Of a DNA stretch of 64,000 bases, positions 1-12,450 are shown one piece after another (positions within the stretch are counted from its first letter, which is position 1; every line of letters starts with the position of its first letter). The position numbers were made by a program, and so were the translations under genes. The stretch spans positions 3,968,001 to 4,032,000 of the forward strand of contig OY970325.1 of the NCBI GenBank assembly GCA_963717145.1, written 5' to 3'. The DNA comes from an uncultured Armatimonadetes bacterium. Its GTDB lineage: Bacteria > Armatimonadota > UBA5829 > DTJY01. Under the pieces are notes generated by a model. It was given only the letters and a program-made list of their open reading frames with translations, was not told the DNA's origin and made no database searches.

Positions 1-2759
1 GCAGCTTCCACCGGGCACCGAGCCGCCGACTCTGAGCAGCGCGACCACTCGCCTCGCGGAGGTCTACGAGTCGCCGTCGAGGGCGATCTCCCGCTGACGG
101 AGCTGCGCGAGACTCGCCGAGTGGCAGATCGCTACAACCTGCTTACCGTGCCGGGCGTCGCCGAGGTGCTGAACATGGGCGGCCACATGCGCCAGTATCG
201 GGTCACGATCGACCCGAACCAGCCTCAGGGCGTACGGCATCACGCTTGCCGAGTTGAAGAGGCCGTCAAGGGCGGCAACGAGAACGCCGCCGGCGGATTC
301 ATCAGCACCGGCCCGACGGAGTACACCGTGCGCGGGATCGGCCGCTTCGACTCGGTCGAGGACATCGAGGACACGGTCGTGGGCGGAACGGGCGGCGTGC
401 CGATCTTCCTGCACAACGTCGCCGACGTCGAGGAGGGCACCGCGATCCGCAGGGGCATCGCCAGCAAAGAACGGCAAGGAGACCGTGGTCGCGCTCGTCA
501 TCAAGCAGCCGAACGCCGATACCGTCAAGGTCGTGGAGGGCATCGAGAAGGCGATCGAGGAGATGAAGCCGACGCTGCCCAAGGGCGTCCGGATCGCCCC
601 CTACTACGACCAGACGCACCTGATCCAGGACTCGCTCTCCAGCGTCACCCGCGCGATACTGGTCGGCGCGGTGCTCGTCATCCTCGTGCTTCTGCTCTTC
701 CTGGGGCACTTCCGCAGCACGCTGATCGTGGCGGCGTCGCTGCCGCTCTCGGTGATCATCGCCGGGCATCCTGATGCGGCAGCATGGGCGTCGGCCTCAA
801 CACGATGTCGCTCGGCGGGCTGGCGATCGCGGTCGGCATCATGGTGGATGCCTCGATCATCATGGTCGAGAACATCTACCACCGGTTCCACAAGAGCCGC
901 GGCGAACCTCGATCGACGCCGGAGGCGAAGGAGCGCGTCGCCCACAAGGCGGCCATCGAGGTCGGGCGGCCGATCGCGTTCGCGACGCTCATCATCATCG
1001 CGGTGTTCCTGCCCGCTCTTCCTGATGGGCGGGATCGAGGGACTGCTCTTCCGTCCGCTCGCGGTCACCGTGGCCGCGGCGATGCTGGTGGCGCTCGTGC
1101 TCTCGCTGACGCTCACGCCGGTCCTGGCGAACACGGTTCCTGCATCCCGAGGAGGGCGACGAATCCGAGGGCGAGGTGAAGTTCGTCCGGTGGATCAAGC
1201 GGCGGCTACGTCCCCGCGCTGGAGTACGCGCTCACTCACCGGTAGGCTGGTCATCGCGCATCGCGTTCGGGCTGCTGATCCCGGCGGCGCTCGGCCTGAT
1301 GGCTGTGGGCAAGGACTTCATGCCGAAGCTCGACGAGGGCTCGTGGTTCATCTCGACCGTCAACACCGGCCGAGACCTCGCTGGAGGAGAACGACCGGAT
1401 CACCCGGCAGATCGAGAAGCGTCCTGCTCGCGAACCCCAACATCGCCGAGGTCGTCCGCCGCAACGGGCGCTCCGAGCGCGCCATCGGCTGCGTGCTGCC
1501 GGTCAACCTCGGGCGAGATCTTCGTCAACCTCAAGCCCAGCGAACCAGCTGACCAAGCCCGCGGACCGAGGTGCTGGCGGAGGTCCGCGAGCAGATCGAG
1601 CAGATCCCGGGCGTCGCGGCCGCGTTCACCCAGCCGCTGCAGAACAAGATCGACGAGAGCCTGGAGGGCACTCCCGCGCCGCTGCAGGTGAAGCTCTTCG
1701 GTCCGGACATCCAGGTGCTGGCCCAGAAGGGCAAGCAGATCGAGGCGATCATGCAGGGCGACACGCGGGCGTGGCCGACGTGAAGATGGACCAGGCCACG
1801 GGCATCCCGCAGCTGCAGGTCCAGATCGACCGGCAGGCCGCGGCTCGCTACGGCGTCTCGGTGGCGGACGATCTCCGAGATCGTGCGGCTCGCGGTCGGC
1901 GGCGAGGAGCTGACCCAGGTCTGGAAGAACCAGCGCAGCTACGGGGTCTTCGTGCGCTTCCCGGACGAGATGCGCGGCGACCCCGGAGGCGATCGGCAAC
2001 CTGCTGGTGGATACCCCGTCGGGCGGCGCAGATACCGCTCTCGCAGGTGGCGCAGGTCACTCTCTCCGAGGGCCCGAACGTCATCTGGCGCGAGGCGATG
2101 AACCGGCGGCTCAGCATCGACGCCGAGCATCCAGGGCCGCGACCTCGGCAGCGTGGTCTCGGACATCAAGAAGGGCCTGACGAAGGTCGAACTGCCGAAG
2201 GACTACTTCGTCGTCTTCGGCGGGCAGTACCAGAACCAGCAGCGGGCGATGAAGTCGCTGCTGCTGGCGACGGCGATCGCGCTGGCGGTCGTGTTCATGC
2301 TGCTCTTCGTGGCGCTGAGTTCGGCGTCGCAGGCGCTGATCATCCTGGCGACCGTGCCCAGCGCGTTCATCGGCGGAGTGGCCTCGCTGCTGCTCACCGG
2401 CGAGACGCTCAACGTCTCCTCGGCGGTCGGGTTCATCGCGCTCTTCGGGATCGCGGTGCAGAACAGCCTGGTGCTGCTGACTCAGACGAGGGACTTCATC
2501 GACGGAGGGGCACACCAGGGATCAGGCGATCCGGCTGGCGAGCGTCCAGCGGCTGCGGCCGAAGCTGATGACGGCCTCGTGCGCGGCGCTCGGGCTCCTG
2601 CCGATCCTGCTCAGCGGCGGCGTCGGCGCGGAGATCGAGAAGCCGCTGGCGATCGTGATGGTCGGCGGGCTGGTGACCTCGACGCTGTTCACGCTGCTCG
2701 TGCTGCCGGCGGTCTATCTCCTCGTGGAACGGGTGAAGGACCGCGTCAGTCCCGCCTGA
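1..2759 (+). CDS. CusA/CzcA-family heavy-metal RND efflux permease, 5'-truncated by the window, with multiple frameshifts
   Basis: ORF fragments in alternating frames give RND motifs: [99 protein letters not shown]. Stop TGA at 2757-2759. Confidence 0.9.
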
Positions 2760-2798
2760 CGGCCGCAGATGCCGTTTATCGCTATGCACTGGGAGAGT

Positions 2799-2862
2799 CG
2801 ATCCCCTGACGACTCCTGTCGTCGGCGCGAGCCACCCGACGACAGGAGTCGTCAGGGGATCG
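2799..2862. repeat. Palindromic repeat family B, copy 1
   Basis: 27-bp perfect arms cgatcccctgacgactcctgtcgtcgg / ccgacgacaggagtcgtcaggggatcg. Second copy at 53025-53084. Confidence 0.9.
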
Positions 2863-3070: not shown

Positions 3071-3098
3071 GTATCCTTTGGCGAACGAGGCGCATCTA
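3071..3098 (+). promoter_or_regulatory. Possible autoregulatory ECF-type promoter (GTATCC-N16-CATCTA), near-leaderless
   Basis: 16-nt spacer and -10-like CATCTA ending 7 nt before the GTG at 3106. No clear Shine-Dalgarno sequence before that GTG. Confidence 0.35.
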
Positions 3099-3105
3099 TG
3101 CTATT

Positions 3106-5370
3106 GTGAAAGCAGAGATGCGCAGTCAACGTCACAACCTGAGCGACGCCGAGATGGTGCGGCGGACACTGGCGGGCAGCCGGTCGAGCTTCGACGCCTT
3201 GGTCGACCGGTACCGCGACCGGGTCTACCGCCTGGCCTACTTCAAGGTCCGCCGCCCGGACGAGGCCGAAGACCTCGCCCAGGATGCGTTCGTTGCCGCC
3301 TACCAGGCGCTCGGACAGCTCAGGGATCTCGACCGCTTCGCCCCGTGGCTCAGGCGGGTGGCCGAGAACGTCTGCAACATGCGCGTTCGTCGGACGCGCC
3401 CTGAGACCATCCCCATCGAGGATTACCACACGCCAACCGAGGACCACAGCATCGAACGATGGCTCCTCGACACGCGGATCCACGATGCGCTCTCTCAGCT
3501 TTCAGAGACCAACCGCCTGGCCGCGACGCTCTTCTTCGTGGACGGCCTCTCCCAGAAGGAGATCGCCGAGTTCCTCGACGTTCCGGTGACGACCGTCAAG
3601 CGCCGGATCAACCTGTCGCGCGCCCGGCTCAAGAAGGAGTTGATCGATATCATGCACGACACAATCGGCCCGGAGAAGGCGAAACCCGGGTTCGCCGATG
3701 AGGTCTCCGCCAGGATCGACGTGCTGCGCTGGTGCCGGCAGTTCGGCGACTACATCAACGCCGGGGTGACGCTCGTCAGGGCGCTCTCAGACCTGGAGGA
3801 GGGCGACTTTTCCGATCGAATCAAGGCGGAGACGCACGCCGTCCGAGCCGCCATCATGGAGGGGGCTTTCCTCACTGCGGCGATAAGGGAGCACTCACCA
3901 TCGCTCAATCACCCGCTGATCGTCGGGATGCTCCGCGCCGGCGAGATCGGCGGCGTGCTGGATCAGAGCCTGAGCACGATCGTCTCGTGGATGGAACGCG
4001 AGGACATCGGCCTCAAAGTCGATACGGCATATTGGCTCCGAACGCTTGCCATGATGCTTTCCGCGGGTGTGCCGGTCGTGCAGGCGATCGACACGATGCA
4101 GCACGTCCGAGCGGCCGAACCGCTCCCCGACCTGCAGGCCAGGCTGAACGAAGTCATCCGAGAGGGCTGTCGCTTCCCGGTCATATTCGCCGAGTTCCCG
4201 GGACTCTTCAGCCCGGCGGTGATCGCACTCGTCGCCGCCGGTGAGGAGAACGGCATGCTGGACACGGCACTCGTCATTGCCGCCTCGGAGATCCTCCGCG
4301 AGGCCTTCGAGAAGATTCAGTCCGACACGGCGCTCTCGTTCGACGCCCATGCCCGGGAGAAGTTGGCGGAACAGGTCAGAGCGCATCTCGCCGACAAGTC
4401 GCCCGAGTCACGGATCGGCGCGCTCCAGGCGCTCGATCAACTGACGGGTGCTGTTCGGGTTGTCCAGGTCGGCCCGCTGACATCCCGACGCGCTCCAACG
4501 TGGGGAGAGCTGACCGGATCCGAGTCGATGGAATGCTACGTCTCGGCGCTCGACGACCGGTCGGCCGACGTTCGACGCACCGCCGCCGAGATCCTCGGGA
4601 AGCATCCGTCGGCGGAGTCGGTCACCGCGCTCTCCAGGGCGCTGAAGGACAAGTCGCCCGAGGTCAGGCAGGCGGCGCTGGTGTCGCTGTCGAGCATCGA
4701 TCCCCGGGCCGGCTTCGAGCGTGCCAAGTCGATGCTGGGCGACAAGTCGGTCGGTGTACGGCGTGCGGCGATCCGAATCGTCGGGTCGTTAAGCAGCCGG
4801 GATGCAGCCGACCTGCTCGTCCCGCTGCTCGCAGACCCGGACATGCTGGTCGCCAGCGATGCGATGAAGGGGCTGAAACGCATCGGCGCACCGGCGGTCG
4901 AGCCACTCGTCAACGCGATGAGCGCGACGAAGCCGTTGAGCTGCCAGCTCGCGATGGAGGCGCTCAGAGAGATCGATCCCGGCAAAGCGCGGGAGGTCGC
5001 GCTGGATCTTCTGCAAAGGGGAATCACGGACGCCCGATCTGCTGCGATGCGCACCATATCACGGGTCGGTGGGGACGAGGACATCCCCCTGTTGATCGAA
5101 GCGCTGTCGGACAGCGATCCCTACGGGGTGGTGCGCGACGCCGTGGAGGCGCTCGGACGCCTGAAGGCAAAGGATGCCGTGCCCGCGCTGATCATCACGC
5201 TCGATCATCCCGAGGAGTGGATCGCGCTGAGAGCAGCTTATGCGCTGGCGGCAATCGGCGACAAGAGCGCGATCCCGGCGCTCGAGGCTAAGCTCTCCGC
5301 CAACAATCCTCGCCTGGTGATCAATGCCGCCACGGACGCGCTGAAGTGTCTCGGCGCTGAATGCACATAG
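3106..5370 (+). CDS. ECF sigma-70 factor fused to two T2SSF (PilC/GspF-like) domains and HEAT repeats
   Basis: Sigma2 (AEDLAQDAFVAAY...FAPWLRRVAEN) and sigma4 (GLSQKEIAEFLDVPVTTVKRRINLSRARLK). PilC-like WCRQFGDYINAGVTLVRAL...MLRAGEIGGVLD and RTLAMMLSAGVPVVQAI...LVAAGEENGMLD. HEAT units such as LDDRSADVRRTAAEILG and LKDKSPEVRQAALVSL. Confidence 0.85.
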   Translation: MKAEMRSQRHNLSDAEMVRRTLAGSRSSFDALVDRYRDRVYRLAYFKVRRPDEAEDLAQDAFVAAYQALGQLRDLDRFAPWLRRVAENVCNMRVRRTRPETIPIEDYHTPTEDHSIERWLLDTRIHDALSQLSETNRLAATLFFVDGLSQKEIAEFLDVPVTTVKRRINLSRARLKKELIDIMHDTIGPEKAKPGFADEVSARIDVLRWCRQFGDYINAGVTLVRALSDLEEGDFSDRIKAETHAVRAAIMEGAFLTAAIREHSPSLNHPLIVGMLRAGEIGGVLDQSLSTIVSWMEREDIGLKVDTAYWLRTLAMMLSAGVPVVQAIDTMQHVRAAEPLPDLQARLNEVIREGCRFPVIFAEFPGLFSPAVIALVAAGEENGMLDTALVIAASEILREAFEKIQSDTALSFDAHAREKLAEQVRAHLADKSPESRIGALQALDQLTGAVRVVQVGPLTSRRAPTWGELTGSESMECYVSALDDRSADVRRTAAEILGKHPSAESVTALSRALKDKSPEVRQAALVSLSSIDPRAGFERAKSMLGDKSVGVRRAAIRIVGSLSSRDAADLLVPLLADPDMLVASDAMKGLKRIGAPAVEPLVNAMSATKPLSCQLAMEALREIDPGKAREVALDLLQRGITDARSAAMRTISRVGGDEDIPLLIEALSDSDPYGVVRDAVEALGRLKAKDAVPALIITLDHPEEWIALRAAYALAAIGDKSAIPALEAKLSANNPRLVINAATDALKCLGAECT

Positions 5371-5400: not shown

Positions 5401-5427
5401 CTTGGCGGTCTTGGCGTCTTGGCGGTT
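5401..5427. repeat. cttggcg(N1-2) triple tandem repeat, family F
   Basis: cttggcggtcttggcgtcttggcggtt. Near-identical copy at 7963-7990, and two reverse copies inside queC. Confidence 0.75.
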
Positions 5428-7801
5428 ACTTCTGATGCTTCGTGCGGGCGATGATGTGGTCCTGCATGGCTCGGTCGAGGAGGCGGAACGGCTGGCTGAA
5501 TCCTGAGACGCGCACACAGAGGTTCGAATAGCGCTCGGGGTCCTCCTGGGCCGCGCGGAGTGATTCGGCGCTCACCACGTTGAACTGCAACTGCCCGACG
5601 CCGAGGTGGACCGCGCTCATCAGGAGGTCGGTGAACGCCTGCTTCCCACTGCCCGAGAGCAGACTCGGGTGCGCCTCCAGGATCGCCGAGCTGCTCGCGG
5701 CCACCAGATGGTGCGGTATCCGGCTGAGCGAGTTCACCACCGCCGTCAGGCCCTCCTGGTCGCGGCCCTGAACCGGGGACACGCTGTAGGCGAGCGGCTC
5801 TCCCGAGAGCCGGCCATCGGGCGATGCGCCGGTCGCTTGCCCCATCGCGAGCATCAGTGTGAACGTGAAGAGGTGGACGTGATAGCCCCCGCCGCTGGGC
5901 GTCCGATACCGGCCAAGGACCTCGCAGTACTGACGCGCCAGTTCCGCCGCATACTCGTCCGGGAGCGGCTCGTCGTTGCCGTACTTCGGGAGGCGATTCT
6001 TGAGGTACAGGCGCAGGTCCTCGCGACCCTCGAAGTTCGCCCTGAGCGCCTGAAGCATCTCGTCCGGGCTCGTATCAGTGCACTGTAGGGGCGTGCCTTG
6101 TGCCGCCCGAGACCGCCTGCCCACCTGGCGCTGTAGGGGCGTGCCTTGTGCCGCCTGGCGGGTGGTCTCGGGCGGCACAAGGCACGCCCCTACAGCGTTA
6201 TCATTGAAGACTGCGGTCTGGAGGGCGGCCAGGCTGTCGGCGACGTTCGGGATGCCCATCGCCGCGCTGGAGTGGTAGTTGTAGCGCGCGCCGCCCTCGA
6301 TGATGTCGAGGCCGTCCGAGACGCAGTCCTCGGTCAGCAGCGAGAGATACGGCAGCCGGAACTGGTCCCGGTGCGCGAGCTCGGCTGCATTCGAGCCGTA
6401 GACCGACCATTCGGCGAAGTAATCGAGCTGCTTCGAGTAGGCCGCGAGCACGTCATCCATCGAGCGGAAGTCTGCCAGCGTGCCGGTTTGTGGGCCGACC
6501 TGGACGTCGTCGAGCAGATCGCGGCCGTCGTTGAGCGCCAGTTCGAGGCACTTCGCCAGGTTGATCCAGTGGCTGACCGCGTGGGGATTCGCCTTGCCCG
6601 GGATCGTGATCTCGATGCAGCCGATCGCCGCGTAGTCGCGCGCGTCCTCGATCGGAATCCCCTTCGACACGAGCGCGGGGATGAGCGCCTCGTCGTTGAA
6701 GAAGAACGGAATGCCCCCGCCCTGCGCCACGAGATCGACGCACCGCGGGACGAACTCGCGCGGGCTGCCACCATGCAGGCGCGCGGAGAGGCATCGCACG
6801 AAGCCGAGCCCCTCGGTCACGTCGAGCACCAGGTAGCTGAGCGGATTGACCGCATCGCGGCCGTCGGCCTGTTGGCCCCCGATCATCATCTGCTGGACGT
6901 CGTAGGCCTGGTAGAGCTTGACCCATAGTGCCGCGAGCAGTTCGGCGGCCTGTTCCATGTCGAGCAGCCCTTCCGCGAGGTCCCGTTCGAGGTACGGCCA
7001 GAGGAACTGATCGATCCGCCCGATGCCGTTCGCGTTGACGCCGTCCTCCCAGACGGTGATCATGTGGGCGAACCAGAGCGACTGAATGGCCTCGCGGAAG
7101 GTCCGCGCGGGCTGTGCCGGGACGTGTTCGCATATCTCGGCGATCGTTTCCAATCCGCGACGCCTGGCCTCTTCCGCGTGACGCCTGCCGAGGGTGATCG
7201 CCGCATCGCATATCCTGAGCCAGGCAAGGAGATTCGCCCGCCTGTGTGGGCCGTCCGGATCCGTCGGAGAGAGAGAAGTAAGAGCGGCTTCGACCTCGGC
7301 CCGTATGCCCGAGAATCCGAGGCGCAGGACCTTCTCGTAGTCCCGAATGCTGTGGTTCAGTTCCGTGCCCCAAACCGAGATGACGCCGTGCTCCTGGGCT
7401 AGGGTGATCTCCGGCGGAGTCGGCGCGACCCCGGCTAGCTTCTGCCATGCGAACAGCGGCTGCTCGGTCCAGGAGAGGAAGCGGTCTCGCTCCTCGGCGG
7501 TCAGGTGGGATGTGATGTCCTGCCGCCAATCCTGCGGGATCTCAGGCGTGAACGGGATAGGGTAGCAGGGATTTCCGTGCTCGCCGGCGATCAGGTCGCC
7601 GTCGGTGATGCGAACCGGCATCCGCTCGATGACGTTCGCGAGCCCACGGGCGTTTCGGATCGGCAGGGATTGGCCCTCAGCCGCCAACCAGCCCTCGAGG
7701 TAGTAGTACGGGCAGTACCAGCGTCCGTGAAACAACTCCTCCGGCTGGGCGAGCATCCTCTCCCGCAGCCGTTCGATTCGCTCCGAGGGCTGATAGGTCA
7801 T
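5426..7801 (-). CDS. Glycyl radical enzyme (PFL2/glycerol dehydratase/CutC superfamily), substrate unknown
   Basis: C-terminal glycyl radical loop LCVRVSGFS, active-site AAIGCIEI (single Cys), PKYGND and ASPDGR. Start placed at MTYQPSER because the upstream ORF extension is repeat-derived. Confidence 0.88.
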   Translation of the reverse strand: MTYQPSERIERLRERMLAQPEELFHGRWYCPYYYLEGWLAAEGQSLPIRNARGLANVIERMPVRITDGDLIAGEHGNPCYPIPFTPEIPQDWRQDITSHLTAEERDRFLSWTEQPLFAWQKLAGVAPTPPEITLAQEHGVISVWGTELNHSIRDYEKVLRLGFSGIRAEVEAALTSLSPTDPDGPHRRANLLAWLRICDAAITLGRRHAEEARRRGLETIAEICEHVPAQPARTFREAIQSLWFAHMITVWEDGVNANGIGRIDQFLWPYLERDLAEGLLDMEQAAELLAALWVKLYQAYDVQQMMIGGQQADGRDAVNPLSYLVLDVTEGLGFVRCLSARLHGGSPREFVPRCVDLVAQGGGIPFFFNDEALIPALVSKGIPIEDARDYAAIGCIEITIPGKANPHAVSHWINLAKCLELALNDGRDLLDDVQVGPQTGTLADFRSMDDVLAAYSKQLDYFAEWSVYGSNAAELAHRDQFRLPYLSLLTEDCVSDGLDIIEGGARYNYHSSAAMGIPNVADSLAALQTAVFNDNAVGACLVPPETTRQAAQGTPLQRQVGRRSRAAQGTPLQCTDTSPDEMLQALRANFEGREDLRLYLKNRLPKYGNDEPLPDEYAAELARQYCEVLGRYRTPSGGGYHVHLFTFTLMLAMGQATGASPDGRLSGEPLAYSVSPVQGRDQEGLTAVVNSLSRIPHHLVAASSSAILEAHPSLLSGSGKQAFTDLLMSAVHLGVGQLQFNVVSAESLRAAQEDPERYSNLCVRVSGFSQPFRLLDRAMQDHIIARTKHQK
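6083..6197. repeat. GTAG-type REP-like cluster lying in frame within the glycyl radical enzyme gene
   Basis: Two direct copies of ctgtaggggcgtgccttgtgccgcc (6083, 6131) and one inverted copy (~6170-6195). Confidence 0.85.
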
Positions 7802-7824
7802 TCTCGGTCCCCATCGGGTGTTCG

Positions 7825-7942
7825 GGCGGATTTGTAATCCGGCCCGCATTGGCAATCCGGGGATCTGTGATCCCACGACCCGCCGGATGGCATCACAGAT
7901 GCCGGTTTGCCACCGGGTGCTGGATTGCAAATCCGCACCAAC
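7825..7942. repeat. ~120-bp MITE/REP-like element, family D, copy 1
   Basis: Ends gcggatttgtaatcc...ggattgcaaatccgcacc. Interior is shared, in reverse orientation, with 40291-40417. Confidence 0.85.
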
Positions 7943-7962
7943 GTTGGGTCATTTCCGGTCCC

Positions 7963-7990
7963 CTTGGCGTTCTTGGCGTCTTGGCGGTTA
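7963..7990. repeat. Family F repeat, copy 2
   Basis: cttggcgttcttggcgtcttggcggtta. Confidence 0.75.
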
Positions 7991-7993
7991 GCC

Positions 7994-8566
7994 CTAATCC
8001 GGCAGTTCGCGGATGTAGATGTCCTTGAACCAGAGCGGGTGATTGTGATGCTGAAGCTCGATCGTGCCGGTCTCGGGCAGGCCATTGATGCTGTTCATCT
8101 TCACATGATCGACCACCTGGACGCCGTTCTCGATCACCGTCACGTAGCCCTTCCTCATGATGATGATGAAGCTGTTCCACTCGCCTACCGGTTTGTCGAC
8201 GTTCAAGCGCGGCTCGTTCTTGTCGTTGTAGAGTCCCCCCGAGCCGATCGGATTGTCCCAGATCTGGACCTGCGGCTGGCCTCGGAGGTAGATCCCGCTG
8301 TCCCCGCCCTTGTCTATCTTCCAGTCGACCATCAGGATGAAGTTACGGTAGTCCTTCTCGGTCCGTAGCGAGTCGCCCTTGCCGTCATAGTTCAGGACGC
8401 CGTCGACGACCTTCCAGTGCTTCTCGATCTCGGCATCGTGCTTCCAGCCGCTTAGGTCCTTGCCATTGAAGAGCGGCTTGAACCACTCCGGGACCTTCTT
8501 GCCCGCGAGCGCGATCGAGCCGATGGTCAGCACGATCAGGGTAATCGCGAATGTGAGACGTTTCAT
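7994..8566 (-). CDS. Secreted DUF1080 (3-keto-disaccharide hydrolase-like) protein
   Basis: Signal peptide MKRLTFAITLIVL; motifs LFNGKDLSGW, GDSGIYLRG, KPVGEWN, GTIELQHH, WFKDIYIREL; RBS aaggagga. Confidence 0.9.
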   Translation of the reverse strand: MKRLTFAITLIVLTIGSIALAGKKVPEWFKPLFNGKDLSGWKHDAEIEKHWKVVDGVLNYDGKGDSLRTEKDYRNFILMVDWKIDKGGDSGIYLRGQPQVQIWDNPIGSGGLYNDKNEPRLNVDKPVGEWNSFIIIMRKGYVTVIENGVQVVDHVKMNSINGLPETGTIELQHHNHPLWFKDIYIRELPD

Positions 8567-8626
8567 ACCGGAATCCTCCTTGTGATCGCTGATATCTGTT
8601 TCGACCCCATGTCGGAGGAAACCTGC

Positions 8627-8669
8627 AAAAACGCAGAAAACCGGCTGCCTCGGCCGGTTCTCTGCGTTT
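8627..8669 (-). terminator. Intrinsic terminator
   Basis: aaacgcagagaaccggccg-agg-cagccggttttctgcgttttt on the minus strand. Confidence 0.6.
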
Positions 8670-8797
8670 ACGCTAGGACTGTATTTAGTTATGCAGCCTC
8701 GAGACGGGATCGATTCCAACCCCCCGTTGGCGCTAGCCATTGAACCAGCTTCCCGTCTCAGGCATCGCAGGCACTGCAAGCAACGCCTGCAATCATC
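8627..8797 (-). ncRNA. Candidate structured RNA 1 (sRNA or attenuating leader)
   Basis: Lies between an ECF-like promoter (8803-8829) and a terminator (8627-8669). Contains a 14-bp hairpin (8764-8793) and a 3-way junction (8701-8759). G-U pairs form only on the minus strand. Confidence 0.5.
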
Positions 8798-8802
8798 TAA
8801 TC

Positions 8803-8829
8803 TGACGCCGGCCGCGCGCGGAAAGTTCC
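8803..8829 (-). promoter_or_regulatory. ECF-type promoter GGAACT-N16-CGTCA
   Basis: Same -35 and spacing as the sites at 9134-9159, 14206-14234 and 59754-59782. Confidence 0.6.
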
Positions 8830-8983
8830 TATGGCCGACGGTTTTTTGTCATACTCAGCGAAATTTTCCCCAACTGCGTGGACGTTTCGCTCATCACCCT
8901 CATATTACCATGTGTGCGATCTGTGTCCAACTGTTAAGAATACCAGGTTTCGGTGGAATCGCATGAGGAATGACGCAGCCACG

Positions 8984-9014
8984 AAAAAAGAGCCTCACCT
9001 TGCGGTGAGGCTCT
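8984..9014 (-). terminator. Intrinsic terminator
   Basis: agagcctcacc-GCAA-ggtgaggctc followed by T6 on the minus strand. Confidence 0.85.
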
Positions 9015-9125
9015 AAGAATGCCGGGTCGTCGGTGCTCGGGACCTTGCAACAACCAACGGCCCGGCTTGGGCAAGGAGGTATTGGAAAGGAGCAATCTGC
9101 ATCACTTGCGTTCTGCAGGTTTCCT
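8984..9125 (-). ncRNA. Candidate sRNA 2 with anti-SD tract
   Basis: ECF-like promoter upstream. Hairpin, then unpaired CUCCUUUCCAAUACCUCCUU, then a gccggg...cccggc hairpin, then a strong terminator. No credible ORF. Confidence 0.55.
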
Positions 9126-9133
9126 ACTTATGA

Positions 9134-9159
9134 TACGACGTGGCCGTGTCCAGAGTTCC
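9134..9159 (-). promoter_or_regulatory. ECF-type promoter GGAACT-N16-CGTA
   Basis: ggaact ctggacacggccacgt cgta on the minus strand. Confidence 0.55.
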
Positions 9160-9221
9160 GTAATTGTCACACCTTTTTCACAGTATTTCAGGAAGGCGTC
9201 GGAGGTCGCAGGATAGTGTCC

Positions 9222-12200
9222 TCAGAGGGGATAGGTGAAGATGTCCGCTGCCGTTCGAGGAAGGACCACGCGCACGAGTCCGCAGTCCCCAGCGGCCATC
9301 GAGAGCACACCCGTCGCAATGGCGTAGTCGCCTTCCGGAGGAAGCGGGCTCAGAACGGACGAATCCACTCGGATGCCCGGCGTGGACGTGCAGTCGCGCA
9401 GCCCCGAACCATCATCCAGGTAGATGAACCCATCGCCAACGGAGCTTATGCGTCCCCAGACCGTCACCAGAAGACCCGGCGGGCAGCTCGATTCGATATC
9501 CCTGCTGAGAATGGTGACCGGACGCACATTGACGGTCTCGCCGGTCTTCCCGATGTGTTCTCCTGCGAGCGCGCGCTCGGAGAGCACCGTCGTCAGCCGA
9601 CCGCCGACCTGAACCACGTCGCCGACCCCGACGCCAAGGCCCTGAACCTTGATCGCGGACGACCGATCGAGCGCCTCGATGTAGAACCACGACCCGAAGA
9701 CTCCCGTGACCGCGCCTGACACGAGTATGCTTTCCCCGTCGCCCAACGTGCGGGCCACACCGATCGATGGAACCGTCACGAATGCCGGCTCGAATCGGAC
9801 CGAGTCGGCGAGGACGACATATCCCGAATCCGCAACATTGGTGAGCCGGACTGTGATGGTTTCACCCGCGGACAGTTCGCTTACGCCAAGCTGGTTCCAT
9901 TGGCCGCCGTCGATCTGCTGGTTGACGGTCGTGTTGTACTCATTCGGGCCGACGATGATGGAGTATCGGGCGGTCGTTGTACGGTTTGCCCCTGCCGACC
10001 ATCGCGCTTGGATCCTGTAGATGCCTGTCTCCGGTGCCTGCCGAGTCCAGTATGCCTTCGACGTTCCACTCGGACTGGCCATCGCATAGCGGTAGTCCGG
10101 GCCGTATGCGCCCGGAGTGACGTTACCGGTGGACCAGCCTCCCTCGACGCTGAACGCGGCATCGAGGTTGTCGACAATCACGGCATCATCGGCCCTGGTG
10201 ACGATGTAGATCGGCTCCGATTCGGCGCGCTGGCCGAACTCGTCTTCCGATGCGACATCGATCCGATAGACCACGCCGGGCGCGAGGCCCTCGAGCCTGA
10301 TGCGGTGCTGGAGAACTTGCTTGGCGTCGAAGTGGCTCTGGAGACCGTCCGGGCCGACCACCGCATACTCGAGCCTGCTGTCGGCCGGAAGGTTAGTCTT
10401 CCACCCGACATCAGCCGTTGTGGTGGTGACATCTGAGACTCCCGGATCGATTAGCCTCAGCGGACTTCGCAGATACTCCACGCACTGGTTGCCGAACCAG
10501 TCGGTCGCTCCGACTGCAATGGTGAGAGTGTCGGCCGGTTCGAACTGGATCTGCCAACGGTTCGGACCTGAGTGCGTGCAGTCCAGGCGCGAATATGAGC
10601 CGTCCGTGCCGAGTCGGGCCACAAACGGCTGAAGCTGGTAGATCTCCTCGTCGTATGAGAGGGTCACCGTGCGAATGCTCGCATCATCCTCGCTCGTGAC
10701 CTGGAGGTTCGGCGGAGTGACATCCGATCCGTCTCGCCATCGGAGCATGCACTCGCGGCCGGTGAGGTATTCGAACTCGACCATCGGGAGGCTGCCGTGC
10801 AGATCGGTCAGTCTGGCGTGAAGGGCATCGACCTGCTCCGGGAAATCGGTTTCCTTGAGGTGCGAGAAGAGCGTCATGAGCTGCGGTTCGCCGTCGAGCG
10901 CCTTGTAGAACGCATCTGTCAGCACGGCCGTCGTTGCGCTGCTGATAGACTCGCTCCTCGAATCCCACCCGCGGAGCGTCCCGGGCGACTGATAGTCGTT
11001 CGGATCGGGATGGTATGGCGTCCAATCCGACGGCGCACGTCGCCAGTCGTAGATGTTGCCGACAGGCTCCTCGGTCGTCGTGCGGTAGGCTGGCCAGTCG
11101 TTCTCGAACCGGTATGGGATCCAATCGTCCAGGTGGCGCTGCCAGAGGTTGTCCATGTAGTGCCAGCCGCTGCGGAACGATGACGGATAGAACCCCCGGT
11201 CGATCAGCATGTGGGCCATGGTGCAGTCGAAGTCCTCCATGCAGTAGCTGAAGTCGGGCGACTGGTTCCAGTGGAAGGCGCCGTCGGCATTCGGATCGTT
11301 CCAGATCCAGGTGTGGTAGTGGTAGGCCATCTCGTCGCCCCAGCGGTCGATCGAGTCGCCGTGATAGTCCTCCATCAGCTCGAACGGGAGGAGCGGCCCG
11401 GAGTCGGTTCCGGCTGCGTAGAGCGAGCCGGTCTGCATGTACCACGTGAACTTGATCGCGTTCCCGAGGCTGTCGCGGTGGGCGTCGCGGTATGACTCCG
11501 CCATGACGCGCGCGGCCTGGCCCTCGGGCGTCGTATAGGTGTTGTCGAGTTCCGGGAAATCGATGTAGCGGCTGGCGATATTGATCCCGCCGGTCGACGT
11601 GTCGGAGCAGACTTGGACGTATACCTTCGCGGGCGTTGCGTCTCCCGGCCTCGTGAAGACCAGGTCGTCCACGAAGAATGTGCTCGTGTGCGGCATGACG
11701 AAGTTGCCGATGCACGCGTATAACGGCGCGCGGAGGTAGGTCTGGGCGATGCTCGCGTCGGGAGCGGCGTGGCCGTCGAGGTACAGGTTCGTCGTGGAGC
11801 CGTCATAGGTGATTCGGAAGGAGTGCCACGCACCGTAGGACATCGGCTGGACGACGTTCGCGTACTTGCCGGAGACTGAATCGGGGACGTACAACTGCAC
11901 CCGTCCGCCGGGGAGGATGAAGATGATCGCCGCGACACCCGTGGACGAGTTCTGGACCGACCACGGGATCGCCTCGTCTCCCATCGACTCGATGAAGAGG
12001 TTGAAGGTACACGTGAATGTCTGATCCACGGTCCGCACGCCTGAACAGGTGTGGACCGCGCCCATCTCGTTGGCCGACGCGACCTTCAGGCTGTATGCGC
12101 CCGATGTCGAGCGCTCGTCGCTGATGCTGACGGACCCGGGCTGGACGTACGTCCACCTCGGGTCGGCAGTAAGATTGCCGTCGTCGAAGTCGTCGCGCTG

Positions 12201-12272
12201 GACGACGCTGTCGGCCCATGCCGACCCGCACAGGAGTATCAGTAGCAGTAGTATGGCGGCCGATGTCTTCAT
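9222..12272 (-). CDS. Large secreted multidomain protein: ConA/LamG-like, putative deacetylase-like core, FN3-like, golvesin/Xly-CBD-like, shared C-terminal domain
   Basis: Signal MKTSAAILLLLILLCGSAWA; WHSFRITYDG...LYLDG; AYHYH and FRSGW; W.TNLPADS.LEY; VIVDNLD...YGPDYRY...NQQIDGGQWNQLG...VLADSVRF. Confidence 0.8.
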   Translation of the reverse strand: MKTSAAILLLLILLCGSAWADSVVQRDDFDDGNLTADPRWTYVQPGSVSISDERSTSGAYSLKVASANEMGAVHTCSGVRTVDQTFTCTFNLFIESMGDEAIPWSVQNSSTGVAAIIFILPGGRVQLYVPDSVSGKYANVVQPMSYGAWHSFRITYDGSTTNLYLDGHAAPDASIAQTYLRAPLYACIGNFVMPHTSTFFVDDLVFTRPGDATPAKVYVQVCSDTSTGGINIASRYIDFPELDNTYTTPEGQAARVMAESYRDAHRDSLGNAIKFTWYMQTGSLYAAGTDSGPLLPFELMEDYHGDSIDRWGDEMAYHYHTWIWNDPNADGAFHWNQSPDFSYCMEDFDCTMAHMLIDRGFYPSSFRSGWHYMDNLWQRHLDDWIPYRFENDWPAYRTTTEEPVGNIYDWRRAPSDWTPYHPDPNDYQSPGTLRGWDSRSESISSATTAVLTDAFYKALDGEPQLMTLFSHLKETDFPEQVDALHARLTDLHGSLPMVEFEYLTGRECMLRWRDGSDVTPPNLQVTSEDDASIRTVTLSYDEEIYQLQPFVARLGTDGSYSRLDCTHSGPNRWQIQFEPADTLTIAVGATDWFGNQCVEYLRSPLRLIDPGVSDVTTTTADVGWKTNLPADSRLEYAVVGPDGLQSHFDAKQVLQHRIRLEGLAPGVVYRIDVASEDEFGQRAESEPIYIVTRADDAVIVDNLDAAFSVEGGWSTGNVTPGAYGPDYRYAMASPSGTSKAYWTRQAPETGIYRIQARWSAGANRTTTARYSIIVGPNEYNTTVNQQIDGGQWNQLGVSELSAGETITVRLTNVADSGYVVLADSVRFEPAFVTVPSIGVARTLGDGESILVSGAVTGVFGSWFYIEALDRSSAIKVQGLGVGVGDVVQVGGRLTTVLSERALAGEHIGKTGETVNVRPVTILSRDIESSCPPGLLVTVWGRISSVGDGFIYLDDGSGLRDCTSTPGIRVDSSVLSPLPPEGDYAIATGVLSMAAGDCGLVRVVLPRTAADIFTYPL

Positions 12273-12450
12273 GGCCGAATTCGCCTTTCGATCAACTTGG
12301 CTGCCGCGCGATACCATTATACCACATGATCACTTCAGATCGACGTGGCCGATCGAATGAGGCTCGAGACGGAGAGTCTGCTTCCAGGAAGAGGGGACAC
12401 CAGTGCGGCCGCCTTTCGGGAAGTCCGAGGGGTGGAGGTCGATCTTGAGA

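Follow-up and report, generated by a model that had tools for sequence, protein, structure and literature searches.

What does a sigma factor do with part of a pilus motor platform? This question is raised by a gene in the window (the whole 64,000-nt stretch of DNA analysed here), whose product joins the two sigma regions of an ECF sigma factor to a tandem of PilC/GspF-type (T2SSF) domains and to a run of HEAT repeats. We found this to be a real, conserved ECF sigma factor gene of an Armatimonadota bacterium, with the PilC-type tandem and the HEAT repeats in one soluble protein. The architecture suggests that gene expression may be coupled to a pilus motor, and the evidence for and against this reading is set out below.

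An intact gene for sigma, PilC/GspF-type and HEAT domains

The reading frame, its main domains and the element directly upstream are as follows.

3073–3099, plus strand: promoter-like bipartite motif, ATCCTTT (3073–3079), 13-nt spacer, CATCTAT (3093–3099)
3106–5370, plus strand: sigma–T2SSF–HEAT open reading frame, 754 aa from GTG 3106 or 750 aa from ATG 3118
3199–3399, plus strand: sigma region 2, residues 32–98 (Pfam Sigma70_r2, E = 2.6e-15)
3475–3630, plus strand: sigma region 4, residues 124–175 (Pfam Sigma70_r4_2, E = 3.1e-12)
3715–4002, plus strand: T2SSF domain 1, PilC/GspF Cyto1-like, residues about 204–299 (Pfam and NCBIfam)
4033–4335, plus strand: T2SSF domain 2, Cyto2-like, residues 310–410 (best Pfam T2SSF stretch, NCBIfam)
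4516–5355, plus strand: HEAT/PBS-lyase-type repeat solenoid, residues about 471–750 (HEAT_2, E = 5.2e-36; HEAT_PBS, E = 2.2e-15)

A single stop-free frame of 754 aa, counted from GTG 3106, spans the locus, and its codon periodicity is strong (GC 83% at position 3 versus 46% at position 2). Translation probably begins at ATG 3118, as in the database gene call (P0002). Initiation at the GTG appears unlikely because the second box of the upstream motif ends 6 nt before it, without space for a leader or ribosome-binding site. The uninterrupted frame and the domain order proposed in a first-pass annotation of the sequence were both borne out, with Pfam matches to Sigma70_r2, Sigma70_r4_2, T2SSF (twice) and HEAT_2. 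Four stretches were matched by HEAT_2, and HEAT, HEAT_2 and HEAT_PBS all scored above their cut-offs. In an AlphaFold2 model, the HEAT part (~280 aa) folds into paired helices (pLDDT 90–98), and a fold search with the whole model was led by alphaRep and armadillo repeat proteins, i.e. was dominated by this part. The pTM of the whole-protein model (0.54) leaves the arrangement of the domains undefined.

If the fusion were an artefact, a misassembly or a frameshift would have stitched an ECF gene to a broken pilC and a HEAT gene, or the locus would be a pseudogene in decay. The AcrB-like gene directly upstream is broken over four frames, so the region has either decay or indel errors, and one orthologue (G369) is split into two frames within sigma-4. 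Against this, the frame of the gene itself is intact and shows the codon periodicity given above, ~30 homologues from independent assemblies have the same architecture, contigs from three studies span all three domain junctions, and transmembrane (TM) segments are cleanly absent from every member. The chimera that the first-pass annotation had raised against its own reading is ruled out by the independent homologues and the junction-bridging contigs, and we regard the artefact explanation as a whole as refuted.

A conserved family within one lineage of ECF sigma factors

The combination of a sigma core with the T2SSF tandem was found in 28 of the 35 relatives collected. HEAT repeats were also present in 21 of these 28, the other seven being short proteins that end shortly after the tandem. 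Across sampled genomes, the fusion occurred in 7/401 from the phylum to which the window belongs, identified as Armatimonadota through DnaK names, and in 0/401 in each of two other phyla. The wider family came from an exhaustive search of representatives; word-based searches returned only the five closest relatives beyond the protein itself, or three when the query was the tandem alone. All ten family representatives checked were cluster singletons from Logan/ENA assemblies. In a protein atlas (query residues 1–460; clusters of at least 50 members only), no cluster combining sigma and T2SSF was present and the best cluster (0.85) was sigma-only. A contig scan with two sigma-region peptide patterns returned sigma-only relatives (residues up to ~218) and is no gauge of family range.

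In a tree of the sigma core, 31 of the 32 T2SSF-bearing rows formed one clade (SH-aLRT 90) consisting of two paralogous subclades. The exception was P0262, whose T2SSF match is weak and partial. HEAT-only members fell outside this clade. Members of this sigma-core lineage carry WD40, TPR, BFN, HEAT, DUF2087 plus HEAT, or T2SSF plus HEAT extensions, and the type of extension follows the phylogeny of the core, a pattern taken as a sign of extension–core interaction in the text of Casas-Pastor et al. (PMC7826278).

The branch with the T2SSF tandem is ancient and has been inherited stably, its two subclades being 25–50% identical, and does not represent a recent chance insertion. Identity between the two subclades was 39% for sigma-4, 36% for T2SSF-1 and 10% for the spacer. 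Sigma-2 and sigma-4 were the best-conserved parts of the family, and T2SSF-2 and the HEAT part were conserved far less than T2SSF-1.

A PilC/GspF tandem without membrane helices

Pfam T2SSF matched two stretches of the protein (E = 9.5e-28; 97 bits against a cut-off of 25.2), which are joined by a short junction.

3997–4026, plus strand: junction REDIGLKVDT, residues 298–307, which replaces the ~90-aa TM1–loop–TM2 of canonical PilC/GspF

In the AlphaFold2 model this junction sits within one unbroken helix (residues 285–319), in keeping with the earlier description of two T2SSF-like domains linked by REDIGLKVDT. Five canonical PilC/GspF paralogues were detected in the same genome; fused domain 1 aligned with Cyto1 of the four closest, and fused domain 2 with Cyto2 of the canonical paralogues. 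The fused copies cover positions 1–91 and 1–102 of the 125-position T2SSF profile, the last 23–34 positions being missing, while in the canonical paralogues most copies of the domain extend to position about 117–125. The signature R...G..L...P.L...GE.GG.L is retained in domain 1, where L267, E280 and G283 are invariant (27 rows), and canonical signature residues are retained in both domains. When the model of the tandem alone was searched against PDB folds, the only significant folds were the cytoplasmic domains of PilC/EpsF/OutF/TcpE, and single-domain structures matched the tandem model with TM-scores of 0.70–0.83 and an rmsd of 1.4–2.8 Å (Foldseek). Scores for the GspF equivalog TIGR02120 (78.8 bits versus 424) and for the PilC models (66 versus 700) were below the cut-offs.

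A hydropathy scan of the fused protein revealed no TM segment between the T2SSF domains and no TM3 after domain 2. By comparison, all five canonical paralogues showed strong hydrophobic peaks after Cyto1 (about 2.2–3.4) and after Cyto2 (2.5–3.0), the positions at which the first-pass annotation had expected TM helices in PilC/GspF. The sole hydrophobic 19-residue window of the fused protein (residues 359–377; Kyte–Doolittle 1.94) maps to the conserved FP...AGE helix inside T2SSF domain 2 (pLDDT 90–92). A TM helix at this position, which would make the product an unusual membrane protein, was considered and rejected, as the segment is a confidently modelled helix of domain 2. Hydrophobic windows of at least 1.6 were absent in 20/27 family members. 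The claim that the protein has no TM stretch stands with this one window as a qualification, as does that of a soluble sigma factor in a single polypeptide, which consists of the sigma core, a membrane-less PilC/GspF-derived tandem and HEAT repeats.

The sigma core and its linker

The protein passed the ECF superfamily model TIGR02937 (sigma70-ECF) with 83.6 bits, the cut-off being 42.9. In Pfam, Sigma70_r2, r4_2, r4 and Sigma70_ECF all matched at E up to 1, and no model of sigma region 3 or region 1 was among the best 25 of the 26 families retrieved at this threshold. Every NCBIfam equivalog scored under its own cut-off, the nearest being SigM (102.5 bits versus 190) and SigW (100.4 versus 209). 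The best PDB sequence matches were the active ECFs SigW and SigH (E = 1e-19 to 1e-20). From this homology we infer sigma activity, including binding of core RNA polymerase and of a promoter.

A sigma-like domain may also act without contacting RNA polymerase or DNA, and PhyR uses such a domain as a decoy. Instead of a transcription factor, the present protein would then be a partner-switch adaptor or a soluble regulator of a pilus motor, and 1/35 relatives did give a weak PhyR_sigma-like Pfam match (E = 5.4e-05) in addition to the PhyR precedent. However, the TIGR02937 score, the SigW/SigH matches and the conservation of sigma-2 and sigma-4 above all other parts speak against a mimic, as does the fixed bipartite motif before every family gene, which an autoregulated sigma factor predicts. 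We therefore consider a sigma mimic highly improbable.

Sigma-4 is followed by a conserved linker motif and by a C-terminal extension of 560 aa.

3673–3726, plus strand: post-sigma-4 linker motif, residues 190–207, EKAKPGFADEVSARIDVL, pattern P-x-[ED]-F-x3-V-x3-[IL]

The linker motif is common to sister ECFs bearing WD40, TPR, BFN, HEAT-only or unrecognised extensions and is absent from all five stand-alone ECFs aligned. In a 35-row alignment (A2), conservation of its residue F196 reaches at least 90%. A complex prediction of the sigma part (residues 1–190) with the extension (195–754), run with alignment A3 for each and without controls, gave a score of 0.00 against a mark of 0.32 and counts neither way.

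A bipartite motif upstream of the family genes

The motif at 3073–3099 recurs across the family, as ATCCTT[TC]-N13-CA[TAC]C... precedes the start by 6–40 nt in 9/9 family genes with upstream DNA (seven genomes). The site of the gene itself is the top PWM site of its genome (24.7 bits); the next site scored 19.7 bits and the top site of a 2-Mb shuffle 19.0. A pattern scan of five genomes gave 25 matches versus 5 with a reversed control and exposed an additional family gene (L118). Regex and PWM scans of the gene's own genome revealed no second clear target, the next-best site lying at the level of shuffled sequence. The extra pattern matches in five other genomes were mostly within long open frames, and the translated downstream genes had no common feature.

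Together, these data point to the motif being the gene's own ECF-type promoter, through which the protein would be autoregulated. The usual ECF consensus is GGAAC at −35 and CGT at −10. The family motif departs from it and might therefore serve a different regulator as operator. Among the sequencing runs listed, no RNA run held the sequence (best DNA share 0.23).

Genomic context and candidate partners

No anti-sigma or pilus genes were recognised beside the gene or beside six orthologues, and the flanks of these seven loci differ from each other. Several of the ORFs in these flanks matched no Pfam family and could include a novel anti-sigma factor. The adjoining genes are unrelated to pili or secretion, and the nearest of the genome's 13 T2SSE matches is >200 kb distant. 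T2SSE ATPase matches numbered 9–14 per genome in 6/6 fusion-bearing genomes tested, that of the window included. T2SSE was also matched in 13/14 control genomes, and the presence of these ATPases is weak evidence because they are nearly universal.

This context bears on whether the tandem still has anything to do with pili. The bundles may have been divorced from pili and secretion and now act as a helical spacer, mediate oligomerisation or work as an anti-sigma-like domain within the molecule, in which case any real signal would come in via the HEAT solenoid or proteolysis. Such an exapted scaffold is consistent with the lack of a genomic link to pilus genes and with the placement of HEAT-only members outside the T2SSF clade. 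After the shared linker, sister ECFs place unrelated modules (WD40, TPR, BFN, HEAT-only), which suggests that any protein-binding fold suffices. In addition, crystal forms of Cyto1 are dimers and its conserved patches coincide with oligomer interfaces, according to the text of PMC10790770. Conversely, every member retains the GE.G.L signature in both domains, with E280 and G283 invariant, and T2SSF-1 is nearly as conserved as sigma-4, whereas a part serving purely as a spacer should have drifted, as the spacer at residues 406–470 has. A scaffold role is thus possible, if on balance unlikely.

Proposed mechanism

We favour, with some reserve, a one-component cytoplasmic ECF sigma factor with a fused regulatory extension, for which a PilB/PilT/GspE-type ATPase would be the likeliest partner. 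Regions 2 and 4 would bind core RNA polymerase and the family promoter ATCCTTT-N13-CATCTAT; as this promoter precedes the sigma gene, the protein would boost its own synthesis. The 560-aa extension would stand in for a separate anti-sigma factor. It would lead from the conserved linker helix to the membrane-less pair of PilC/GspF six-helix bundles and on to the HEAT solenoid, both of which are putative protein-binding modules, and binding of a partner to this module would toggle the sigma domains between an unavailable and an available state.

By homology, the likeliest partner would be the N2 domain of a PilB/PilT/GspE-type motor ATPase. Canonical Cyto domains have been modelled as binding the N2 domain of GspE/PilB, and in an AlphaFold model of PulE6:PulF3 each Cyto domain contacts one ATPase N2 domain via a conserved surface, as described in PMC10790770. 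Sensing of a pilus or secretion ATPase by the extension is plausible by homology with these platforms. In a more specific form of this proposal, which is tentative and which we judge quite unlikely, the PilC decoy would dock on N2 of a PilB/PilT/GspE-type hexamer and thereby capture or release the sigma factor. Docking would occur when the motor is unengaged with the membrane platform, or in a particular nucleotide state.

Relation to known systems

The protein resembles ECF41 (SnoaL-like), ECF42 (TPR), ECF238, ECF264 and other such groups, as described in the text of PMC7826278 (see also PMC3426412), in having sigma-2 and sigma-4 only and an extension of >50 aa. As in the extension-bearing ECF groups described in PMC7826278, no anti-sigma factor was recognised alongside and the extension tracks the sigma core. 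Unlike in these groups, the extension measures 560 aa and is made of PilC/GspF cytoplasmic domains and HEAT repeats; the main text of PMC7826278 names neither T2SSF nor HEAT as a type of extension. The planctomycetal ECF lineages of Pinto & da Fonseca (2020, PMC7671368), in which duplicates pick up unrelated C-terminal extensions, likewise combine one sigma-core lineage with many C-terminal Pfam domains. As far as the text of that study describes them, the present lineage differs in belonging to Armatimonadota and in its conserved linker motif before every extension, and its T2SSF branch, unlike the planctomycetal duplicates, is old and stably inherited.

With the PilC/GspF/PulF platforms (PMC10790770; PDB 3C1Q, 2WHN, 5NBG, 3JC8), the fused protein shares two six-helix bundles in the order Cyto1 then Cyto2 and the family signature. 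Unlike these platforms, it has neither the three TM helices nor the N-domain and is unable to make a membrane channel or platform; its gene lies outside pilus and secretion clusters and scores below the GspF/PilC equivalog cut-offs. We found no published description of an ECF sigma–T2SSF architecture: the main texts of the two ECF-wide surveys do not mention T2SS, GspF or pili, and the literature retrieved on Armatimonadetes ECFs and pili and on GspF/PilC–sigma fusions contained nothing on it. Within the scope of these main texts, the initial impression that the architecture is unknown from described ECF groups was correct.

Implications for sigma factor and pilus biology

That ECFs can sense through fused extensions is recognised, but how they do so is poorly understood, and this family adds a new kind of extension. 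To our knowledge, few extension types have been studied so far (SnoaL-like, TPR and Cys-rich). The parent domain of the present extension has a known specific partner, the pilus/secretion motor ATPase, which gives a concrete and testable guess at the input signal; most uncharacterised ECF groups come without one. As a cognate promoter has been predicted, a heterologous sigma/promoter reporter test is possible at once. The family is also the first context found in which PilC/GspF cytoplasmic domains occur as a naturally soluble tandem, a possible reagent for the still unresolved platform–ATPase contact.

In flagella, FlgM/sigma-28 forms a checkpoint that ties the export machine to a sigma factor. 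If the extension senses motor state, the likeness would be a purely functional analogy, as the state of a surface-filament machine would determine how active a dedicated sigma factor is. Unlike with FlgM, nothing would be exported here, and the coupling would run via a sigma-fused decoy of the machine's platform. We know of no sigma factor for which such checkpoint logic, built on a decoy of the machine itself, has been described. Transcription, that of the sigma gene first, would then report how busy the type IV filament machines are. If the extension is a scaffold only, the family would still represent a new ECF group, from a phylum that has received little study, and a case of modular extension swapping behind a conserved linker.

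Domain architecture and integrity of the fusion

The gene at 3106-5370 of the window (plus strand) is one open frame of 754 codons, beginning with GTG, whose GC content by codon position (83% third, 46% second) fits the expectation for a real gene in 62%-GC DNA. The first-pass annotation had described a single ORF carrying sigma-2 and sigma-4, two T2SSF-like domains separated by a ten-residue joint, and HEAT repeats. A Pfam search matched all of these domains in the frame, and the joint was located in it:

Residues 32-98, plus strand: Sigma70_r2 (Pfam)
Residues 124-175, plus strand: Sigma70_r4_2 (Pfam)
Two copies, plus strand: T2SSF (Pfam, 97 bits; cut-off, 25.2)
Residues 298-307, plus strand: REDIGLKVDT junction between the T2SSF domains
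Four stretches, plus strand: HEAT_2 (Pfam)

The protein passed the NCBIfam model of the ECF superfamily (TIGR02937; 83.6 bits, cut-off 42.9) and matched no NCBIfam equivalog, with SigM, SigW, GspF and PilC all far under their cut-offs.

In addition to the protein of the window itself, a word-indexed search retrieved five relatives (47-71% identity) that share its Pfam set, and an exhaustive search of 50%-identity representatives added about twenty more matching residues 13 to ~400. Among the 35 relatives collected, Pfam detected Sigma70_r2 in 34, T2SSF in 28 and HEAT_2 in 26. Searching with the query's parts (phmmer) found the sigma part and the tandem T2SSF copies together in 28/35, 21 of which also carried HEAT; the other seven were short (290-538 aa), ended soon past the tandem and are probably cut sequences. 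The ten representatives looked up were singletons from metagenome assemblies. The window's genome is a single contig of 5.37 Mb, and all organism-named DnaK relatives of the window come from Armatimonadota or Armatimonadetes. Bridging of the domain junctions, proposed beforehand as a check, was observed throughout, in contigs from four public runs and three studies (85-99% identity to the window):

Sigma-to-T2SSF junction: crossed by contig records 3, 10, 19 and 30
Domain 1-to-domain 2 junction: crossed by contig records 6, 13 and 21
T2SSF-to-HEAT junction: crossed by contig records 8, 16 and 21

With the same architecture in independent relatives and every junction crossed, an assembly chimera was ruled out.

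The tandem is a soluble version of the PilC/GspF cytoplasmic domains

The AlphaFold2 model (27-row alignment) was all-helical, with a mean pLDDT of 85.9 and a continuous helix (285-319) linking the first bundle to the second; the whole-protein pTM was 0.54, which leaves undefined how the three parts are placed relative to one another. When residues 195-440 were modelled on their own (pLDDT 82.4), significant PDB folds were exclusively cytoplasmic domains of PilC, EpsF, OutF and TcpE (single-domain matches: target-normalised TM-score 0.70-0.83, rmsd 1.4-2.8 Å), which, alongside the Pfam score, upheld the PilC/GspF likeness proposed from sequence.

The claim that no transmembrane stretch is present also stood. 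The sole 19-residue window exceeding 1.6 on the Kyte-Doolittle scale (359-377, 1.94) lies within T2SSF domain 2, in the conserved FP...AGE helix, and is modelled inside the bundle at pLDDT 90-92. Across the family, 20/27 members had no window ≥1.6 and the maximum over all 27 was 1.94. In the same genome, the canonical PilC/GspF paralogues with two domains carried a strong hydrophobic segment directly after the first cytoplasmic domain (Cyto1; 5/5, peaks 2.2-3.4), a second one there in 4/5, and another after Cyto2 (5/5, peaks 2.5-3.0). In the four closest of these five paralogues, Cyto1 aligned with fused domain 1 and Cyto2 with fused domain 2. Compared to the closest (C1:2502021-2503247), the fusion lacks ~90 inter-domain residues and ~45 residues after Cyto2. 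Likewise, the fused copies reach only positions 91 and 102 of the 125-position Pfam T2SSF model, whereas most canonical domain copies reach ~117-125. Both fused domains retained the T2SSF signature of canonical proteins, and L267, E280 and G283 were invariant in the 27-row alignment.

Distribution and relationship to other ECF sigma factors

Samples of 401 genomes per phylum were searched, with four candidates scored per genome. In the window's phylum, sigma part and tandem occurred in one frame in 7/401 genomes from three families, a count that includes G369, whose copy spans two frames; 12 further genomes had the sigma part and linker only. The G369 orthologue (L099, G369:C4:4223-5417) is split into adjacent frames inside sigma region 4, near query residue 151, by a frameshift or sequencing error. 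One genome (G306) held two fusion copies, and a second copy in G393 was revealed later by motif search. The fusion was not found among the 401 genomes sampled from G403's phylum (its locus record bears the title Acidobacteriota), nor among the 401 from that of G401 (locus record titled Verrucomicrobiae), where one genome matched the sigma part and linker only. A locus similar to the sister ECFs described below (L141) lies in a genome from the latter phylum.

The nearest sigma cores were ~40% identical, mostly from the same phylum, and carried different extensions: WD40 propellers, bifunctional-nuclease (BFN) domains, TPR, HEAT alone, DUF2087+HEAT, or ~400 residues without a Pfam match. All extension-bearing relatives shared a motif after sigma-4, P-x-[ED]-F-x3-V-x3-[IL] (PGFADEVSARID in the query), that was absent from the five stand-alone ECFs aligned. 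Sister ECFs combining this linker motif with other extensions (L104, L109, L110, L113, L107, L103, L105, L108, L114, P0237, P0225) were mostly from Armatimonadota where a genome record existed, and jointly represent an entire collection of one-component ECFs yet to be characterised.

In a sigma-core tree of 53 rows, including four outgroup rows (one of them, L013, from a genome since flagged as unpublished), one clade held 31/32 T2SSF-bearing proteins (SH-aLRT 90). P0124 had been left out of the tree for want of a sigma part, and L014 and L019 because too little of their sigma sequence aligned. The sole exception, P0262, had a weak and partial T2SSF match. The clade comprised two well-supported subclades (8 and 23 rows), and as G306 carries one gene from each, these are paralogous lineages. 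Conservation between them dropped along the protein, from 50% identity in sigma-2 to 39% in sigma-4, 36% in T2SSF-1, 24% in T2SSF-2, 10% in the spacer (residues 406-470) and 25% in HEAT. The lineage resembles the planctomycetal ECF lineages described in PMC7671368, in which duplicates gain diverse extensions.

Genomic neighbourhood and a conserved upstream motif

Upstream of the gene, an AcrB-like gene is split over four frames, and the surroundings are as follows:

1-2809, plus strand: AcrB/RND-type transporter gene in at least four frames (1-774, 254-1552, 1771-2568, 2153-2809)
2898-2941/2961-3004: first perfect palindrome
2799-2825/2836-2862: second perfect palindrome
3073-3079 and 3093-3099, plus strand: boxes of the conserved motif
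5426-7930, minus strand, downstream: glycyl-radical enzyme (PFL-like + Gly_radical)
7994-8779, minus strand, downstream: 3-keto-disaccharide hydrolase (DUF1080) protein
9222-12317, minus strand, downstream: 1031-aa protein (Golvesin_C + LamG + fn3)

The broken state of the transporter gene reflects either pseudogene decay or a run of assembly indel errors. The palindromes, lying between it and the sigma gene, have the look of a repeat family of REP or MITE type: 20-mers of the first one's 44-nt arms each occur ~35-96 times in the genome, and metagenome contig depth is 10- to 100-fold higher over both. The three downstream genes (5426-12317) have no evident link to the sigma gene. Type IV filament systems are unusually rich in this genome (~8 canonical T2SSF genes, 13 T2SSE ATPase matches), and the whole-genome survey placed none of these near the fusion. 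The canonical PilC closest to the tandem is clustered with three PilT-like ATPase matches (G000:C1:2502021-2505745). Six orthologues were flanked by unrelated genes (dnaN, aroA, serS, NamZ-like, AbiEi-like, oxidoreductase) and several further ORFs without a Pfam match.

Intergenic DNA upstream of the orthologues was dissimilar apart from one motif, ATCCTT[TC], exactly 13 bases, CA[TAC]C[TCA][ACT][TCA], present before 9/9 family genes with upstream sequence (7 genomes). It ends 6-40 nt from the start codon, with GGAGG in between in 5/9. In the window, its second box stops 6 nt before GTG 3106, and ATG 3118 is therefore the more likely start, where the database gene call also begins. Across five other genomes, the strict IUPAC form hit 25 sites (reversed control, 5). 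Six of the 25 stood directly before family genes, and one of these six revealed a previously unrecognised member (L118). By PWM, the gene's own site scored 24.7 bits, against 19.7 for the next site in the genome and 19.0 for the top of a 2-Mb shuffle. The first box bears only a loose likeness to ECF -35 elements with their 'AAC-TTT' shape. From these sequence patterns we infer a putative cognate, autoregulated promoter of the family.

Possible role of the extension

On balance, we lean towards an active, autoregulated sigma factor whose extension is a protein-binding module with a regulatory role. The alternative, that the PilC-like bundles are a mere scaffold, appears somewhat unlikely. As to what such a regulatory module would bind, modelling in PMC10790770 has each Cyto bundle of a real platform docking, by a conserved exposed surface, onto a single N2 domain of the GspE/PilB ATPase hexamer; the bundles make oligomer contacts as well. 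A soluble copy that keeps the signature of these bundles and is fused to a sigma factor could act as a decoy reporting on a motor ATPase. Homology, and the motor ATPases encoded in 6/6 fusion-bearing genomes tested, tentatively suggest the tandem as a natural candidate for this role; we nevertheless regard a type IV filament ATPase as a rather doubtful partner.

The first-pass annotation knew of no such architecture among described ECF groups, and our literature searches (architecture, Armatimonadota phylum) likewise found no description of it. The main texts of two ECF-wide studies, whose supplements could list such an extension, contain no T2SS, GspF or pilus term. ECF sigma factors with a fused extension are already known; what is new is the type of extension, and it is mechanistically suggestive.
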